Positions 29,875-36,921 of a stretch of DNA of 53,651 nt are shown piece by piece (position 1 is the first letter of the stretch; each line of letters starts with the position of its first letter). The DNA comes from a virus. Its lineage: Duplodnaviria > Caudoviricetes. The DNA is taken from positions 1-53,651 of the IMG/VR virus record IMGVR_UViG_3300050343_000116. One strand, written 5' to 3'. The position numbers and the translations under genes were made by a program. The notes beneath the pieces were generated by a model. It saw nothing but the letters and a program-made list of their open reading frames with translations. It made no database searches and was not told the origin of the DNA.

Positions 29875-32800
29875 ATGCCAAGTTTACAAGAGGCACTAGG
29901 CTATTCTCCAATTTCATCTCGCCGGAAAAGACAATCAGACAAGCGGGATGATTTAAACCCGCTTCAGAACTTCACCGCTGGAGTCTCCGCTGGTATTGAT
30001 CAAACACTGGGGCTGGCTGGTGGCCTTAAAGCTTGGTATGGAGAGACCATTGGTGACGACGATATGGTCACTGAAGGTCTTGCCTACTATCAAGAAAAAA
30101 TGCAGGAGGCATCAGAGAGTCGTGGCGACGTAATGTCCTACGAGGACATTGAAGGCATTGGTGACTTCGCTGACTATGCCGCTTATATGGTTGGAAACCT
30201 TCTTCCAACTATAGGATCTGTTGTCGGAACAGGTGGCCTTGCTGGAGCCGCTGGCCAGATTGGTGGGCGCTCTGCGGTAAATTATCAGGTTAAAAAGAAA
30301 GCAAAAGAAGCTGTAGATAAGAGAGTCAAGAACACCGCTCAAAAGCTCGATAAAGATGCAATGGTTAAAAACTACGCGTCCAATCTAAAAGGTAGGTCGG
30401 CAGTCAAAGGACTGTCAGACAAAGCCGCCTCTCGTGCTGGCTCTCTTGGTCAGACTATTGGCGGCGTTGGTGGAAGTATTGGTCTGTCGACAGGAGATAC
30501 CTTTGCCGCCATCTATCAAGAGACCGGAGAGCTGCAAGCTGGAACGGCTTTAGGTGCTGGAATTATTTCTGGTAGCTTGGATGCCTTAACAGGAATGAGA
30601 GCCCTGAAGCGTGTTCTTCCGGCTGACAAGTTTAAAAAAGCTCGAGATGAGGTAGGCGAAAAGGTTATTAAGCAGCGCAAGATTGGCCAAAGAATGCTGG
30701 AGGAGGGATTAAAAAGCTCCGGCATCGAAGGTGTTACTGAGGCGATGCAGGAATTTGTTCAGGAAACAGCAGTTAAGTTAGTGGACAATGATTACTCTTC
30801 GCTGTCTGACGCAATGTACGAGGCCGTGGCACAAGAAGGCGCCAAGTCACTATATATAAATTCAGCATTGGCTGGAGCGTTAGGCGGCTTTGTTATTGGT
30901 GGCGCCAGTGGCATTAAGTCAGACCCGGCCCCGACAAAAGTGCAAGAACCTCCATCAGAAGATGGCCCGGAAATAGCTCCGGTATCTGACGAGCCAAGCG
31001 GCCCGATCATTCCGCAAGATCTACAGATCGAGCGCAATCTAAGAGCGCGAGAAGAAGCTCGCAGAATTATGATGGAAGCTCAGCAAGAGTTGGATCTTGG
31101 CGAGCCCGTGGTTGCTAACGAACCACGAGAGACGGTCACGGACTTGATCGGACAAGAAGTAAGTTATGGCGATGCAACTGGAATACTGACTGAAAGAGAT
31201 GAGGGCGTTTTTGTCGTTACTCCAGACGAAGATGTCTTTGTAGAGTCAGGACAAAACAGAGGCCTAGCCGCTGATAGCCTAGGAATAACAAGGTCTAACG
31301 CGCCACAAGATCTTGAGTTTGAGAACGAGGTGGAGTTTGACACTGCCACCTCTGAATTTTTTGTGCGCGGGAAAAAATATCAATACACCAAATCCAACAC
31401 CAACGATCAAGGTGAGGTTATCTCTGTTACTGCTATAGGGGATAACGGTCAAGAGGTTACCTTCCGTAACAGGGAGATCATAGACAGGATCGTTAGGGGT
31501 GTAGAGCAAGGCGAAAGACGGTTCGATTCTGAGCAGATGGTTCTTATGGACGAGCTGCCTATGTCTGTTCAGCGTCAGATAATGACCGATCAGATGGAGG
31601 CTGGTGAAACATCCATGCCGGATCAGCTGACGGAAGCTCAGGCTATGGATATAGCTCAGAGGCTTCCTGATCAGGATCAAGACCAGCTGACCATGGAGAT
31701 CGGTGAAGCAGTCAGAAGATCAGCTACATTCTTCTCAGCGAATGCTGAGTCTGCTCCCGCGGTCCAAGGTATGCAGAGCCGGGTCGACGAGACTTGGAGT
31801 TCAATGGATCGCACTAATGACAACGTCGATTCAAGCGTGGCTATGGAGCGTCATAACCGTTTGGTAGGTTTAAACATACCTATCAAGGGGACCAACGACA
31901 CATACGTTGTTGAGGAAATGAACCCGGAAGTACTTAGTGGAGCTGAGTCAGGCCTCTCATACAGTAGGAATCAGGGCGGCGTTCAGTACGAAGCCCAGCC
32001 TTTAAGCTCGCGAGAAGAGTTAGAGCCATTTAAGTTAGCTCTTATGGACATTGCTAGCTCAGGTTTCCCTCAAAGCATCATTGATTCGATCGCGGGATTT
32101 GGCATTCATAACGATAGCCGGGGGGAAATGCTTGAGGGTGTAGGGGGTTTTCATGACTTTGTACAGCAGTACATTAGCGTTGGGGAAAACACCGCAAAGA
32201 ATCCAAAACTACTCCGCAACACGCTTGCTCATGAGCTTAGTCATCGTCTTGACCGGGCAGAGGGCGTTACTGAAAGAGAAGAGTTTCGCGCCGTTGTTTC
32301 GGAAGGAACAGAAGGCACTACATCAATTGGAAGCATTAAAGCTCCTATCGAAATCGATATGGGCGATGTCTTGTTTGAGATATACGAAGCGTACAGAACT
32401 GACACACCCATAGGTAACTACTTCAATTACCCTTTCGCTTCTCTCTGGTCGGAGTTTGACAAGATTAGTAAGGCGTTTGATGCCGGCGAAATATCAAAGC
32501 CAAAGCGTGACAAGCAACACAGAGCAGTTTTGAAAGAGCTTAAGAGTGAGGCTTTTGCTCAAAGCTCTGCTCTCTACTTTGCTGAGCCTGAAATGCTGGC
32601 CAAACACGCTCCTCAGATGTATCAATTTATGCGAGACTTAACGTCTCCTGCACAGGACGTAGAGAATGAAAGTTCAATTAGAGAAGAAGGCGATCAGCCC
32701 CAATCTGGACAAGTATCTGGAGAAATTCAGCCACCTGCCCCCGTCGCACCTGTTCAGGTCGAAGACGGTTCAGGAGCTGGACGAGATGGCGGAGTTAGCA

Positions 32801-35800
32801 GTGTTCAAGAACAAGCCGATCAAAGAATGGGAGGCGTGGAAGGACAAGACACTGATCAACTTCCTCTAAACCTCAAAGAAGTATCGACCCTATTCCCGAC
32901 CGCTGTCAGTCGAGAGGTAGACCCAGTTGAAAATGTCATCGTTAGCAACTACGAGGGCTACCAAAACAACAGCAAGTTCGAGCAGAACTCTGAGCTGATA
33001 GCGGGCTATAACAACCTGACTAGAAACGAGCGTCGTCGCGCACCTAAAGCGAGGACAGAGTCTCTTATCGGCCATGTCGTTGATAACCTGCTTCACATTT
33101 ACGATCAGGTTCCTCAAGAAATCAGAGACGTTTCAAAGCTTTGGTATGTTGGGGCAAACAAAATAGCCAATCAATTTTCCAACGAGTACGGGATATCCCT
33201 ATCTCAAGCTTCCGGCGTCATAGCCAACCTGTCTCCACAAAAAGACTGGTACATGAATGCAAGTCTGGCCGAACGTGCCATTGACGTTTACACAAACCAT
33301 CGCACAGATCCTTGGACCGACGCGATGCAGGCTAAAGCAGAAAAGCTATTCATGGAAAACAAAGACCTGAGCAAAAGTGCGGTCGAGAAAAACAAGGTGA
33401 TGCTTGAGAACGTAAAGAACAAGAGCCTTCAGCAGTTAATAGATGAAGGAGCCTCTAATCCTGAGCTTGGCATGTGGACTCGAACTTGGGATCAAACCTT
33501 CAACAACAGTAAGTATCGACTGGTTTCTCCTGATGGAACTTTGCTTGGTTTTGTTAAGACCAAAAAAGGTGAAGATGCCTCAATGGCTTGGGGCAGTAAC
33601 ATAGAAATTGGCAAGGCGTTGTCAGTCTTAGTTGATGGTAGCGATGCCAATATTTCTAAATCACTTGGTCAAGCAAACAAGGTACGAAACTTCTACAACA
33701 ATATCTTTGGTCCGATGAGTGACAAGGGCTTTGTAACCATCGACACTCATGCGGTAGCGGCAGGCTTAATGAAGCCTCTTTCAGGAACATCGAAAGAGGT
33801 CAATCACAACTTTGGTACTGGTAAGGGCGTAGGAAACTCCAGCGTTACCGGATATCGTGGAACGTATGCGGTGTTTGAAGAGGCGTATCGTCGTGCCGGA
33901 AGAGAACGCGGTATTCTTCCTCGTGAGATGCAGTCCATAACATGGGAAGCAGTTCGCGGTCTGTTTACAGACACCTACAAAAACAATGCTCAGAACACGC
34001 TTTTCGCAGAAGGCGTGTGGAACCAATACAGTAGTGGTAAACTCACATTAGACGAGGCTAGACAAAAGGTAAGTAATCATGCAGGAGGATTCAACAGACC
34101 CGACTGGTCTGAATCAGGACGCTCTAAAGATGTTCAGCCGGCTGGGACTTCAACCTTCGAGAGAGGCGTATCTGGAACTGATATATCCAGAAAGGAACTT
34201 GAAGACGGACCCACTGACGGGGGAAGAGGAGTCGATGCTCCCACCGATGTTCAGCGAAAACGAGTAGACTCTCGCTTTGAACCGCCACCCCCATCAGATA
34301 ATCAAGATCTAAACAGAGCTATAAGAGAAGAGGACAAGACCCTTCTCGATTCTGTTAAGACTCAGCTCCGTCGTTATTTGCTTCCGCAGGGTCTGCTCCC
34401 TGATTCCGTGTTCAAGCTAAAGATCGAGCGAGACTCAGAGCTGGGCGCCGTTGAAATTGACATCGGTCAGCTTGTTACAGCCTATGATCGAGCGGTTGAG
34501 AAGCATCACACACAGCTTACTGACGAGCAGAAAAAGCTACATCACGAAGCGCTTGGTGAGAAGTTTAGTGAGATTGAATCTTTAGGTCTTGAACCCGAGA
34601 TAAAAGATGCCATCGTCACGATGCGTAGATATATCGATAAGATGTCGGCAGACTACGCAATCGTTGTGGCTAAAGATGCTCAGCGCATTGCTCTTGACGG
34701 AGACCCCGACAAAGCAGAAGCCAAAATAGATCTAATAAATACGCTCGTGGAGAACATAGGAAGCTATGTCCATAGATCATATCGTGCGTTTGATGACCCT
34801 AACTGGCCAAAGAATGTCCCGGATGCCGTCTTGGATCGGGCTAGAAGTTACCTTGAGGAATCAGGGGCGACAAACGTAGAGAACGTAATCAATACCATTC
34901 TTAAGGACGGTACTGCATACGACTCTATGGAGGCTATGATTCGAGAGTCTAATCTAGGCGCAAAAGATCTGTCGATCTTAAAGGCAAGAAAAGACATTGC
35001 TCCACAAATCAGAGAACTATTAGGCGAGTATCAAGAGCCCCGGATTAACTTTGGTAAAACCGTTACCAAGATGTCTCGGCTTCTGTTTAACGACAGATTC
35101 CTGACCAAGGTTATGCAGGACGGTATGGGCGTCTACCTTTTTGAGGCTGATGATGCCCCGCCACAGGCATTCACTACTCTGGCAGCAGAGAGTTCTGACG
35201 CCATGGCTCCGCTAAACGGCCTGAAGACTACGCCTGAGATATCTCAAGCATTCCAAGATGCGCTTGGAAAAGAGCAGATGGCCGACTGGTACCGCATGAT
35301 TGTTCAGGCAAACGGCTTGGTAAAGTACGGCAAGACTGTCTTGTCTCCAACTACCGTTGCAAGAAACTACATGTCCGCATACTTCTTCACGCTGGCTAAC
35401 GGTCACTTCAACATCAGCAAAGCATCAGAGGCTTGGGCTACCAAGCAGGCTTTCTTTACTCGTGAAGGCGATCGAGTCGCTTACATGAGAAGGCTTAAAG
35501 AGCTTGGTGTTGTTTATGACTCTCCGTACACCGGAGAGATGATGAAATTACTTGAGGAATCGCGTCTGGAGTTTACTTACCAGAACCGGTTCGAAGGTAA
35601 TAACATTGCAGACAACACGAAGAAGCTTGCTGATCGGGCGACTAAGTTTTATCAGTACGGCGATGACTTCTGGAAGATCATTGGTTTTGAGAATGAGATC
35701 GACATCCTCATGGAAGCCAAGTCCTTAACTCGAGAAGAGGCTGAGCCACTAGCAGCCGAAAGGATCAGAAACACTTACCCAACCTATTCGATGGTAGGCA

Positions 35801-36921
35801 AAGGCGGACAGTGGCTAAGACGATTCCCTCTTGCTGGTACGTTTGTTTCTTTCCCGGCAGAAATCATTAGAACGTCATTCAACATGCTTCGATACCTTAA
35901 GCAGGATATGAATGACCCAGACATGTCGAGTGTTGTGCCAAAGAGAGTAGCCGGGTTGGCAATGGCCTCTGGTGGAGCGTTCGGATTGTCTGAGTTCTTA
36001 AAGTCATCTCTTGATATCGATGATGACGAAGAGGAAGCAATCAAGCTGTTAGCCCCACCTTGGTCTAAAAACTCAGACCTTGCATACGTTTCACGTAAAG
36101 ACGGGAACATCCAGTACATAGATCTTTCATCTCTTGATCCGTATTCATACTGGAAGCGTCCGATCAACGCCTTACTTCGTGACCAGCCCATGGATGATGC
36201 AATTGTTCAGGCTGCTGCTGAGCTACTGACGCCATTCTTTGGTAAGGATATTGGTGCTGGAGCGGTTGAAGAAGTCTGGTTCAATAAGAAAGAAACCGGC
36301 TCTCAAGTTTATAACCCGACAGAGCCTGCGGTTGACCAGCTTGCAGATATTACAGGTCACTTGTTCAAGCAACTCTCACCGGGCCTAGTTAACAACGCAA
36401 ATAGAATGATGAAAGCTATCGACGATGATGTCAGTGCTACAGGCAGACGTTATAAAGTAGGAGATGAGATTGCAGCTTTGGCTGGATTCCGAGTAAGCAC
36501 CTTAGACCCGAAGGTCTCTTTGTATTACAAGTCCTTTGAGTTTAACGAGAGCAAGCGCAACGCGACCAAGACTCTGACAGACGCATTCCGCAGTGTGAAT
36601 GACGTTTCTAATTCTGATCTTGAGGGTGCCTTCCGAAGCTCTTCTCGGGCAAGACGTAGAGCCTTTGATGACATGATCAAAATGGTTGGTGCTGCCAGAA
36701 GCTCAGGGCTCAATGAGGCAATGATACTTCGAGTTCTTAAGAATGGCGGTGTCAGCACTAAGGACGCAAAAGCTATTGCGAAGGGTGACTTTTCTTCCTA
36801 TCAGATCTCAGACAGCTCTCTAAAGCGTTACATAAGACGCGCCGAGTTCTTAACTGGTGAGGCCAAAGGGTCAGAGTACGAGCGCAGATTTAGGTTCCTA
36901 CAGTCGCTGGAGGAAGAGTAA
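29875..36921 (+). CDS. Giant internal virion/polyvalent protein (zincin metallopeptidase plus DNA-glycosylase-like domain)
   Basis: 2348 aa; EGVTEAMQE, LAHELSH...EAFAQ, WY...IANLSPQKDW...KVRNFYNNI...VTIDTHA...MQSITW, FVSFPAE. Confidence 0.8.
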   Translation: MPSLQEALGYSPISSRRKRQSDKRDDLNPLQNFTAGVSAGIDQTLGLAGGLKAWYGETIGDDDMVTEGLAYYQEKMQEASESRGDVMSYEDIEGIGDFADYAAYMVGNLLPTIGSVVGTGGLAGAAGQIGGRSAVNYQVKKKAKEAVDKRVKNTAQKLDKDAMVKNYASNLKGRSAVKGLSDKAASRAGSLGQTIGGVGGSIGLSTGDTFAAIYQETGELQAGTALGAGIISGSLDALTGMRALKRVLPADKFKKARDEVGEKVIKQRKIGQRMLEEGLKSSGIEGVTEAMQEFVQETAVKLVDNDYSSLSDAMYEAVAQEGAKSLYINSALAGALGGFVIGGASGIKSDPAPTKVQEPPSEDGPEIAPVSDEPSGPIIPQDLQIERNLRAREEARRIMMEAQQELDLGEPVVANEPRETVTDLIGQEVSYGDATGILTERDEGVFVVTPDEDVFVESGQNRGLAADSLGITRSNAPQDLEFENEVEFDTATSEFFVRGKKYQYTKSNTNDQGEVISVTAIGDNGQEVTFRNREIIDRIVRGVEQGERRFDSEQMVLMDELPMSVQRQIMTDQMEAGETSMPDQLTEAQAMDIAQRLPDQDQDQLTMEIGEAVRRSATFFSANAESAPAVQGMQSRVDETWSSMDRTNDNVDSSVAMERHNRLVGLNIPIKGTNDTYVVEEMNPEVLSGAESGLSYSRNQGGVQYEAQPLSSREELEPFKLALMDIASSGFPQSIIDSIAGFGIHNDSRGEMLEGVGGFHDFVQQYISVGENTAKNPKLLRNTLAHELSHRLDRAEGVTEREEFRAVVSEGTEGTTSIGSIKAPIEIDMGDVLFEIYEAYRTDTPIGNYFNYPFASLWSEFDKISKAFDAGEISKPKRDKQHRAVLKELKSEAFAQSSALYFAEPEMLAKHAPQMYQFMRDLTSPAQDVENESSIREEGDQPQSGQVSGEIQPPAPVAPVQVEDGSGAGRDGGVSSVQEQADQRMGGVEGQDTDQLPLNLKEVSTLFPTAVSREVDPVENVIVSNYEGYQNNSKFEQNSELIAGYNNLTRNERRRAPKARTESLIGHVVDNLLHIYDQVPQEIRDVSKLWYVGANKIANQFSNEYGISLSQASGVIANLSPQKDWYMNASLAERAIDVYTNHRTDPWTDAMQAKAEKLFMENKDLSKSAVEKNKVMLENVKNKSLQQLIDEGASNPELGMWTRTWDQTFNNSKYRLVSPDGTLLGFVKTKKGEDASMAWGSNIEIGKALSVLVDGSDANISKSLGQANKVRNFYNNIFGPMSDKGFVTIDTHAVAAGLMKPLSGTSKEVNHNFGTGKGVGNSSVTGYRGTYAVFEEAYRRAGRERGILPREMQSITWEAVRGLFTDTYKNNAQNTLFAEGVWNQYSSGKLTLDEARQKVSNHAGGFNRPDWSESGRSKDVQPAGTSTFERGVSGTDISRKELEDGPTDGGRGVDAPTDVQRKRVDSRFEPPPPSDNQDLNRAIREEDKTLLDSVKTQLRRYLLPQGLLPDSVFKLKIERDSELGAVEIDIGQLVTAYDRAVEKHHTQLTDEQKKLHHEALGEKFSEIESLGLEPEIKDAIVTMRRYIDKMSADYAIVVAKDAQRIALDGDPDKAEAKIDLINTLVENIGSYVHRSYRAFDDPNWPKNVPDAVLDRARSYLEESGATNVENVINTILKDGTAYDSMEAMIRESNLGAKDLSILKARKDIAPQIRELLGEYQEPRINFGKTVTKMSRLLFNDRFLTKVMQDGMGVYLFEADDAPPQAFTTLAAESSDAMAPLNGLKTTPEISQAFQDALGKEQMADWYRMIVQANGLVKYGKTVLSPTTVARNYMSAYFFTLANGHFNISKASEAWATKQAFFTREGDRVAYMRRLKELGVVYDSPYTGEMMKLLEESRLEFTYQNRFEGNNIADNTKKLADRATKFYQYGDDFWKIIGFENEIDILMEAKSLTREEAEPLAAERIRNTYPTYSMVGKGGQWLRRFPLAGTFVSFPAEIIRTSFNMLRYLKQDMNDPDMSSVVPKRVAGLAMASGGAFGLSEFLKSSLDIDDDEEEAIKLLAPPWSKNSDLAYVSRKDGNIQYIDLSSLDPYSYWKRPINALLRDQPMDDAIVQAAAELLTPFFGKDIGAGAVEEVWFNKKETGSQVYNPTEPAVDQLADITGHLFKQLSPGLVNNANRMMKAIDDDVSATGRRYKVGDEIAALAGFRVSTLDPKVSLYYKSFEFNESKRNATKTLTDAFRSVNDVSNSDLEGAFRSSSRARRRAFDDMIKMVGAARSSGLNEAMILRVLKNGGVSTKDAKAIAKGDFSSYQISDSSLKRYIRRAEFLTGEAKGSEYERRFRFLQSLEEE
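32666..32869 (+). CDS. Nested +1-frame small protein behind the metallopeptidase domain
   Basis: 67 aa, globular-looking; CAGGA RBS; coincides with a low-complexity linker of the host frame. Confidence 0.45.
   Translation: MKVQLEKKAISPNLDKYLEKFSHLPPSHLFRSKTVQELDEMAELAVFKNKPIKEWEAWKDKTLINFL
34079..34267 (+). CDS. Nested +1-frame acidic protein behind the glycosylase-like domain
   Basis: 62 aa, LGLQPSREAYLELIYP...LTGEEESMLP; AAGGT RBS; coincides with a linker. Confidence 0.55.
   Translation: MQEDSTDPTGLNQDALKMFSRLGLQPSREAYLELIYPERNLKTDPLTGEEESMLPPMFSENE

Follow-up and report, generated by a model that had tools for sequence, protein, structure and literature searches.

We analysed the complete 53.6-kb record of a tailed virus (Caudoviricetes; IMG/VR record IMGVR_UViG_3300050343_000116), whose whole length of 53,651 nucleotides (nt) is called the window here. 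Our subject is two small open reading frames (ORFs), ORF-A and ORF-B, which lie entirely inside a giant gene for a polyvalent-type virion protein, on the same strand and in its +1 frame. By comparison with related sequences, each is almost certainly a real coding gene. We judge them real because synonymous sites of the large frame are suppressed over them, their homologues are intact and free-standing copies exist. The features on which the argument turns are as follows.

29875-36921, plus strand: giant ORF, polyvalent-type virion protein of 2348 amino acids (aa), whose main frame reads through both small genes
32017-32664, plus strand: zincin-like HExxH metallopeptidase (MPTase) domain, with HELSH at 32230-32244 (aa 786-790)
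32654-32657, plus strand: AGGA, Shine-Dalgarno core, 8 nt 5' of the ORF-A start
32666-32869, plus strand: ORF-A, nested +1-frame gene with ATG start, 67 aa, basic, overlapping the main-frame linker at aa 931-999
32872-34110, plus strand: DUF7178 domain, with a predicted HhH-GPD glycosylase-like fold (Pfam DUF7178 at aa 1062-1174, E 3e-27)
34066-34070, plus strand: AAGGT, partial Shine-Dalgarno motif, 8 nt 5' of the ORF-B start
34079-34267, plus strand: ORF-B, nested +1-frame gene with ATG start, 62 aa, acidic (net charge -8), overlapping main-frame aa 1402-1465

The initial annotation had described two such +1-frame ORFs, each preceded by a motif resembling a ribosome-binding site and each lying where the main frame becomes a G/E/S/Q/P-rich linker behind a catalytic domain. 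This description stands. Both ORFs exist, with AGGA and AAGGT 8 nt ahead of their ATG codons (in the window's own ORF-B only a partial Shine-Dalgarno core); ORF-A begins just past the HExxH domain and ORF-B at the end of the glycosylase-like Pfam DUF7178. The residues G/E/S/Q/P/D/T/A make up 0.76 of the main frame over ORF-A and 0.65 over ORF-B, against 0.54 of the whole protein, and L, I, V, M and F account for 12/69 and 9/64 main-frame residues over the two overlaps. The small proteins differ from each other: median isoelectric points are 4.4 in the acidic ORF-B family and 9.3 in the basic ORF-A family, and profile comparison detects no relatedness between them (probability 0.5%). Neither product has a signal peptide by eye, and neither has a credible match in Pfam, PHROGs or a protein atlas (Pfam E 0.022-0.071, below cut-offs; atlas 0.76).

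Taken on the window sequence alone, both ORFs are within chance expectation. When the giant gene was shuffled 2000 times with its protein and codon usage preserved, the +1 frame stayed free of stops in 700/2000 trials (35%) over the ORF-A span and in 919/2000 (46%) over the ORF-B span, and the gene holds three +1 ATG-initiated ORFs of at least 60 aa against a shuffle mean of 2.06. Hydrophobic-poor linkers remain open in this frame because a +1 stop requires an NTA or NTG codon.

Selection on the second frame

The case for coding is carried by two close relatives from a metagenome scan, L081 and L082, which retain the full-length giant ORF at 84% and 93% identity over the giant protein. ORF-A and ORF-B are intact in 2/2 of them, with the same start, the same stop and no internal stop; interruption of the +1 frame in close homologues, which would have spoken against the initial annotation, is thus absent from both. 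In the codon alignment of the three sequences, the giant gene has 435, 226 and 1279 variable sites at codon positions 1, 2 and 3, respectively, and the share of variable sites falling at main-frame position 3 lies between 0.40 and 0.89 in all 60-codon intervals except two troughs. The first, at 32602-32900, reaches a minimum of 0.08, with 2/60 third positions variable (binomial probability 8e-18), and the second, at 34069-34280, has a share of 0.23-0.35. No other trough occurs across the 2348 codons, and both lie at the small ORFs, so that third-position variation in the main frame collapses at ORF-A and ORF-B only.

Counting sites by frame gave the same picture. At sites that are synonymous in the main frame and nonsynonymous in the +1 frame, scored in the style of OLGenie, the distance between the window and L081 is 0.042 in ORF-A and 0.044 in ORF-B, against 0.71 and 0.75 at sites of the same class in two control stretches, each about 2.5 kb long (Fisher p 6e-21 for ORF-A and 1e-22 for ORF-B). 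The +1-frame dNN/dNS ratio ranges from 0 to 0.63 across six pairwise comparisons, on small counts. Three other +1 ORFs of the giant gene served as controls, beginning at 32153 (86 aa), 33443 and 31703 (53 and 54 aa); all have stops in L081 or L082 and show the usual third-position-rich variation. The longest +1 ORF in the gene is one of these controls, the ATG-initiated ORF at 32153-32413, and neither ORF-A nor ORF-B; its four stops in L081 and ordinary third-position variation mark it as a chance ORF.

We also considered a weaker dip in the position-3 share (0.40-0.50) at about 31222-31520 as the trace of a third nested gene, and rejected it because each of the six frames is interrupted in at least one of the three close genomes. 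It looks like a place of locally raised amino-acid change.

Families of homologues and their start signals

Wider sampling covered 160 loci: from 503 viral-contig candidates and from 540 metagenome candidates, the best 80 each were taken. Translated searches (tblastn) found +1-frame homologues of both small proteins in distant loci, those of ORF-A at 36-47% identity in 22/160 and those of ORF-B in 107/160 at E <= 0.05. Profiles were built from family alignments of 49 ORF-B sequences (A1) and 12 ORF-A sequences (A2). ORF-A is intact in 22/22 loci (11 distinct peptides) and in six further viral loci, and ORF-B is 52-72 aa long in 97 of 101 distinct copies, the outliers having 36, 43, 45 and 132 aa.

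Over the overlaps, the small proteins are the better conserved of the two products. Mean pairwise identity is 0.479 in the +1 frame against 0.348 in the main frame for ORF-B (44 nested sequences), and 0.454 against 0.344 for ORF-A (12 sequences), and nucleotide change is greatest at the third codon position of the +1 frame. Since the peptidase domain of the window is only 22-30% identical to those of distant loci, ORF-A is also better kept than the domain that precedes it.

Start signals accompany the families. With each copy taken from the ATG nearest the homologous position, available in 49/49 ORF-B and 12/12 ORF-A sequences, a strict Shine-Dalgarno core is found at -17 to -4 of 11/12 ORF-A starts against 0.138 at random positions in the same loci, and 4-17 nt before the start in 32/49 ORF-B members against a background of 0.108. 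Profile searches of a large protein collection recovered 530 called proteins for ORF-B and 76 for ORF-A (E <= 0.001); among the family proteins listed, there was no Pfam family, and names were only 'hypothetical protein' or bare gene-call descriptors. Contigs of a relative (90-95% alike) in an RNA library span 32707-33035, part of ORF-A, and 33984-34437, all of ORF-B; they say nothing on expression, because DNA can occur in such libraries.

Linkage of each small gene to the preceding domain

The ORF-A profile matched 22/160 loci, exactly the 22 that have the peptidase region, and always nested after the HExxH domain. ORF-B follows DUF7178 in 156/160 loci, the four misses ending within 10 nt of the domain match. 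Downstream of ORF-B, by comparison, the C-terminal part of the window's giant protein occurs in only 16 of the 127 loci that extend far enough to hold it (1500 nt or more), which indicates, at the level of gene order, that ORF-B goes with DUF7178 and not with its downstream partner. When loci were selected by the ORF-B pattern alone, DUF7178 lay upstream in 80/80 and was directly adjacent in 78, in a sample that represents one subfamily and in which many contigs repeat earlier ones. The association of each small gene with the domain before it is thereby supported.

Sampling by DUF7178 alone drew on bacterial genome bins of many phyla (32 loci, of which two were fragments and 30 usable). All 14 loci that the ORF-B profile matched there (E <= 1e-4) carry it in the +1 frame, except locus L194, where ORF-B is free-standing, and at least three further loci (L198, L199 and L200) have a diverged ORF-B-like peptide by eye. 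Among isolate and GenBank phages that carry DUF7178, Rhodobacteraceae phage LS06-2018-MD07 has a giant coding sequence, annotated 'methyltransferase', with a weak +1-frame ORF-B match (E 9e-4). A nested gene is annotated neither in that record nor in that of Roseobacter phage CRP-738, which carries DUF7178 in gp40, just after the portal gene. Because gene finders skip genes inside genes, neither family shows up in the annotated phage records that we examined.

The upstream domains and a predicted complex

Residues of the two domains that bear on function lie at these positions.

33679-33681, plus strand: invariant K1269 (K270 of the DUF7178 domain)
33742-33744, plus strand: invariant D1290 (D291 of the DUF7178 domain)
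32545 onwards, plus strand: SEAFAQ glutamate helix of the peptidase domain

Pfam DUF7178 was matched by 43/43 aligned members, and a model from this 43-sequence alignment reached a predicted local distance difference test score (pLDDT) of 94.5 and a predicted template modelling score of 0.92. Compared by VIA with 48,161 representative chains, it returned HhH-GPD glycosylases or DUF2419 in all of the top 21 places (Z 8.8-4.2), the best matches being 3n0u (Z 8.8; root-mean-square deviation 3.8 over 184 aligned residues), 7u07 (Z 8.1), 1xqp (Z 7.2) and 2abk (Z 6.2). DUF2419 is a queuine-salvage enzyme related to HhH-GPD glycosylases. K270 and D291, 21 residues apart in the motif LGxxxKVRNF...VTIDTHAV, are invariant in 43/43 and 30/30 sequences, and may correspond to the hairpin Lys120 and catalytic Asp138 of endonuclease III. 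Foldseek gave a weak match to 1xqp (E 0.14, probability 0.75). Because Foldseek is weak and the sequence profiles are empty, the glycosylase likeness is one of fold only; in its modelled structure, DUF7178 appears to resemble HhH-GPD DNA glycosylases. In a viral structure library, DUF7178 occurs in uncharacterised proteins of uncultured phages, some of them annotated with polyvalent-protein domains.

The peptidase domain was modelled with a pLDDT of only 69.5. H147, E148, H151 and D154 of the HExxHxxD motif, together with E196 and E253, are invariant in 14 sequences, and VIA places lethal-factor-like domains, PPEP or a putative metal-dependent hydrolase (3dl1) in its first seven rows, with Z 9.4-8.7. 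Foldseek matches were weak (E 0.09-0.3), Pfam ATLF (19.6 bits) and M90 (18.7 bits) fell below cut-offs near aa 875-921, and sequence and profile searches of the PDB with this region found nothing useful. The HExxHxxD motif and downstream Glu of the window fit the description in PMC5512222 of the widespread phage-type MPTase of polyvalent proteins, with HExxH and an Asp three residues downstream. That MPTase is proposed there to process the large protein (Iyer et al. 2017, PMC5512222).

We modelled DUF7178 (alignment A3) together with ORF-B (alignment A1) in three runs, with three controls. The interaction prediction score from aligned errors (ipSAE) was 0.92, 0.92 and 0.93, and the best of the controls scored 0.00, which supports in silico the binding of ORF-B to DUF7178. 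The ipSAE mark used for calibration is reached by 58/80 solved complexes and 2/110 mismatched pairs, counts that are only rough here, given the custom alignments used. At least 95% of contacts were common to the runs, with partner pLDDT of at least 86, and the score is unlikely to come from model memory because no solved relative exists. The modelled interface includes DUF7178 residues 263-271 and 291-292, which hold the Lys and the Asp. On these models ORF-B probably binds DUF7178, wrapping over D1290 and over the face that bears the helix-hairpin-helix-like loop with K1269.

Topology and proposed origin of the overlap

The 101 distinct ORF-B copies comprise 94 that are nested, five that overlap the upstream gene at the start only and two that are free-standing, arranged as follows.

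50/101 copies: nested near the end of a 640-720-aa DUF7178 protein, the main frame stopping 38 nt past ORF-B in 45
24/101 copies: nested, the main frame continuing for more than 150 nt
20/101 copies: nested, the main frame open to the locus end
5/101 copies: overlap at the first codons only
2/101 copies: free-standing

Free-standing loci are L028, L150 and L194, and start-only overlap is seen in L029, L071, L072, L120, L157/158, L182, L186 and L191. In L028 the order is a 682-aa DUF7178 gene, its stop, ORF-B, a 69-aa gene and a large gene. Free-standing copies, a well-conserved +1 protein and a low-complexity main frame across it lead us to infer that ORF-B predates the extension of the large ORF through it. 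The small genes would thus have come first, the large ORF would have grown by reading through them in another frame, and this read-through would have produced the low-complexity linkers of the giant protein.

As a separate observation, a second small gene of 69-70 aa follows the free-standing or barely overlapping ORF-B in four loci (L028 2998-3207, L029 4325-4537, L071 1401-1613 and L120 2798-3007). It is followed in turn by a gene of about 620 aa in L071 and L120, and by one that is cut short by the end of the locus in L028 and L029. No constraint trough matching a counterpart of this gene was seen in the window.

The giant gene and its setting

The giant gene is the last of a rightward structural block, after internal-virion and tail-fibre genes. 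Its C-terminal part has a recognisable affiliation.

34627-36792, plus strand: C-terminal virion-structural part (phrog_22602 'virion structural protein' in PHROGs, aa 1585-2306, E 2.8e-76)

By tblastn the C-terminal third resembles Cellulophaga phage structural proteins and a protein of Pseudoalteromonas phage vB_Pun_Y3; a DNA-level search of GenBank phages with the giant gene gave zero matches. At the other end, the translation of aa 1-460 (29875-31250) has by eye several Gly/Ala-rich, hydrophobic-looking stretches, for example at aa ~105-130, 190-240 and 330-345, which might be membrane-inserting segments of an ejected protein.

DNA near-identical to 32000-35000, with at least half of the sampled words, occurs in 16 seawater, marine or viral metagenome runs among 20 matching runs from 15 studies, and the phage is therefore widespread in marine samples. 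One contig (run X10, record 3) matches 32850-34235 only through short conserved blocks of the DUF7178 region, between which the sequence has been replaced over similar lengths; the pattern suggests a relative, mosaic or strongly diverged, that occurs together with the near-identical phage.

Discussion

Our analysis identifies two genes overprinted in linkers of a giant phage protein, and the question that follows is what their products do. The best explanation overall, which we consider evenly poised between right and wrong, is that real nested small genes with their own starts lie in two linkers and encode inhibitor-like partners of the domains before them. Its parts are of unequal strength. 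That ORF-B is an immunity-like inhibitor, holding DUF7178 away from DNA while in the producing cell and lost at packaging or ejection, is a plausible proposal to which we give somewhat less than even credence: ORF-B would mask the DNA-facing cleft of DUF7178 in the producing cell and be shed when the giant protein is packaged or ejected. By analogy, and a shade more tentatively, ORF-A may have the matching role for an autoprocessing-type zincin peptidase, and would do likewise for that domain.

Several results count against this explanation, or against parts of the case on which it stands. Among the loci chosen by DUF7178 alone, ORF-B was matched in only 14/30; ten lack the recognisable ORF-B that strict immunity would demand, and K270, D291 and H293 are invariant in 30/30 aligned rows, the ORF-B-less loci included. 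No ORF-B match was found at gp40 of CRP-738 (locus L162) either, and there was no free-standing ORF-A in 28 distinct contigs, made up of the 22 loci and six new ones (a viral scan with ORF-A returned 12 contigs, of which the other six repeated earlier ones). The modelled interface is very large, with about 70 domain residues, 45/62 ORF-B residues and 139-159 contacts, and invariant residues are not enriched in it (11/62 against about 10 expected). As for the fold of DUF7178, Z 8.8 is below the level advised as safe for helical proteins, sequence and profile searches of the PDB with DUF7178 gave no useful chain, the profile none at E <= 10, and Pfam HhH-GPD was absent among 25 of the 30 families matched by the 43 DUF7178 members.

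These results decide what remains of two ideas in the initial annotation. It had supposed that each effector domain carries its own overprinted inhibitor. A conserved gene tied to each domain is indeed found, but strict immunity fails at the ten intact-looking DUF7178 loci without a recognisable ORF-B; because these loci keep K270, D291 and H293, an obligate immunity protein is not required beside every intact-looking domain. It had further supposed that domain and inhibitor move as one cassette, and ORF-B does stay with DUF7178 across changing downstream parts, although only 14/30 of the DUF7178-chosen loci have it.

The main rival is a noninhibitory partner. Both genes would again be real, with ORF-B binding DUF7178 as a permanent subunit, a folding or packaging chaperone or an activator, and ORF-A assisting the peptidase or assembly. 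The wrap-around and very large modelled interface is like that of an integral subunit, though it would suit an inhibitor equally well, the lack of enrichment in invariant positions agrees with it, and motif-intact homologues without a recognisable ORF-B fit an accessory factor more easily than an antidote. On the other hand, the acidic ORF-B is modelled over the hairpin-Lys and Asp region, which is DNA-binding in glycosylases of the HhH-GPD fold, and a small gene placed right behind an effector domain, with which it moves, is the arrangement typical of effector-immunity pairs. We regard this alternative as a serious though minority possibility. It is improbable, by comparison, that the genes are real and have functions of their own unrelated to their neighbours, such as anti-defence or host takeover, at a site that merely tolerates overprinting. 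Neither small protein has a known family, and a second frame is easily accommodated in the linkers, where the main frame is only about 0.35 identical across the overlaps; against this stand the strict linkage across changing downstream context (156/160 and 80/80 for ORF-B, 22/22 for ORF-A) and the complex score of 0.92 against 0.00 for the best control.

Programmed ribosomal frameshifting into the +1 frame, which would yield shortened forms of the giant protein that end in alternative C-terminal tails, is very improbable. Such a tail could bind its own domain in cis, and the +1 frame is open for 69-118 codons before the ATG in 8/49 ORF-B loci and for 51 codons in 1/12 ORF-A loci. Yet a +1 stop lies at most five codons before the ATG in 16/49 ORF-B and 6/12 ORF-A loci, and in the window such stops lie three (ORF-A) and two (ORF-B) codons before it, with no slippery run by eye in the two to three codons available. 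The homologous ATG is present in 49/49 and 12/12 sequences with Shine-Dalgarno cores enriched ahead, free-standing ORF-B copies lie past the stop of the upstream gene, and none of 27 longer database matches (117-220 aa) is a DUF7178 fusion, the last being weak evidence. That there are no genes at all, the open frames being a by-product of hydrophobic-poor linkers and the synonymous constraint an RNA or DNA element, is scarcely credible and already contradicted by this analysis: the +1 frame does stay open after shuffling in 35% and 46% of trials, and linkers poor in L, I, V and M do lack the NTA and NTG codons needed for +1 stops, but nucleotide change is periodic in step with the +1 frame, whose peptides are more conserved than those of the main frame, free-standing homologues are among the profile matches, the three control +1 ORFs decay and gene callers predict 530 and 76 family members.

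Small genes inside phage genes have precedents. In phage lambda, the spanin gene Rz1 lies in the +1 frame inside Rz, and its product binds that of Rz. ORF-A and ORF-B are likewise small genes wholly within the +1 frame of a larger phage gene and with their own starts. Rz1 encodes a secreted lysis lipoprotein, whereas the host gene here encodes a 2348-aa virion polyvalent protein and contains two nested genes, each in the linker behind an enzyme-like domain; there is no homology between the systems. The reverse of the usual course of viral overprinting, in which a new small protein is born inside an old gene, also seems to apply. One DNA stretch again encodes two proteins, with one frame ordered and conserved and the other of low complexity, but for ORF-B the evidence points the other way, with free-standing copies and a poorly conserved large frame.

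Polymorphic toxin domains are directly trailed by small cognate immunity genes, with phage MuF-type toxins among the comparable systems. The effector-immunity cassettes of polymorphic toxin systems are reportedly treated by Zhang et al. in 2012. The arrangement studied here is similar in that a small cognate gene comes straight after an effector-like domain, the pair moves between architectures and binding is predicted. It differs in that the immunity gene of such cassettes lies past the toxin stop, whereas in the window the small gene is traversed, in another frame, by the large ORF; moreover, ORF-B is missing beside some intact-looking DUF7178 domains, and the toxin and antidote roles are putative. 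For the inhibitory act itself, a parallel is offered by Ugi and p56, which are small acidic phage inhibitors of uracil-DNA glycosylase, a host enzyme. ORF-B is also small and acidic and is predicted to sit on the DNA-binding face of a glycosylase-fold domain, but the targets of Ugi and p56 are a host enzyme of a different fold, whereas ORF-B would act on the phage's own domain, and the sequences are unrelated.

The giant protein is like the polyvalent proteins of phages and conjugative elements treated in PMC5512222, in being a giant multidomain phage protein whose zincin-like MPTase has HExxH with an Asp three residues downstream; this HExxHxxD is invariant in the sequences aligned here. The main text of PMC5512222 does not contain the words 'overlapping' and 'glycosylase', and on that basis the nested genes and the HhH-GPD-like domain appear to be additions to what is described of polyvalent proteins. 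A literature search for 'DUF7178' returned 0 papers, and no paper on a conserved partner gene overprinted in a polyvalent-protein linker turned up among the titles and first parts of abstracts surveyed. Nested phage genes and effector-immunity pairs are both known; the overprinted partner in such a linker appears to be the new part.

Returning to an inhibitor-like role for the small proteins, we advance a wider proposal that we consider unlikely as a whole: giant ejected phage proteins may grow by swallowing entire cassettes of effector and antidote, with the antidote persisting as an overprinted gene, masking its domain and being stripped on ejection. The large frame would run through the antidote gene and thereby make the linker, the antidote would be translated from the same message, and it would be stripped off as the giant protein threads out of the virion.

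In summary, our study documents two same-strand nested genes, both well supported, in a phage with double-stranded DNA and, for ORF-B, an evolutionary series from free-standing through slightly overlapping to fully engulfed, in which overlap seemingly arose by gene fusion across an old gene and not by the birth of a new one. For DUF7178, formerly an uncharacterised domain, both a glycosylase-like fold and a partner are now predicted. If the inhibitor-like role is true, it would give phages a way to carry dangerous enzymes in their virions with their own DNA unharmed; if the wider proposal holds as well, the linkers of polyvalent proteins would be a systematic hiding place for unannotated inhibitor genes. 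Synonymous-site suppression in other polyvalent-protein linkers could reveal more such partners.

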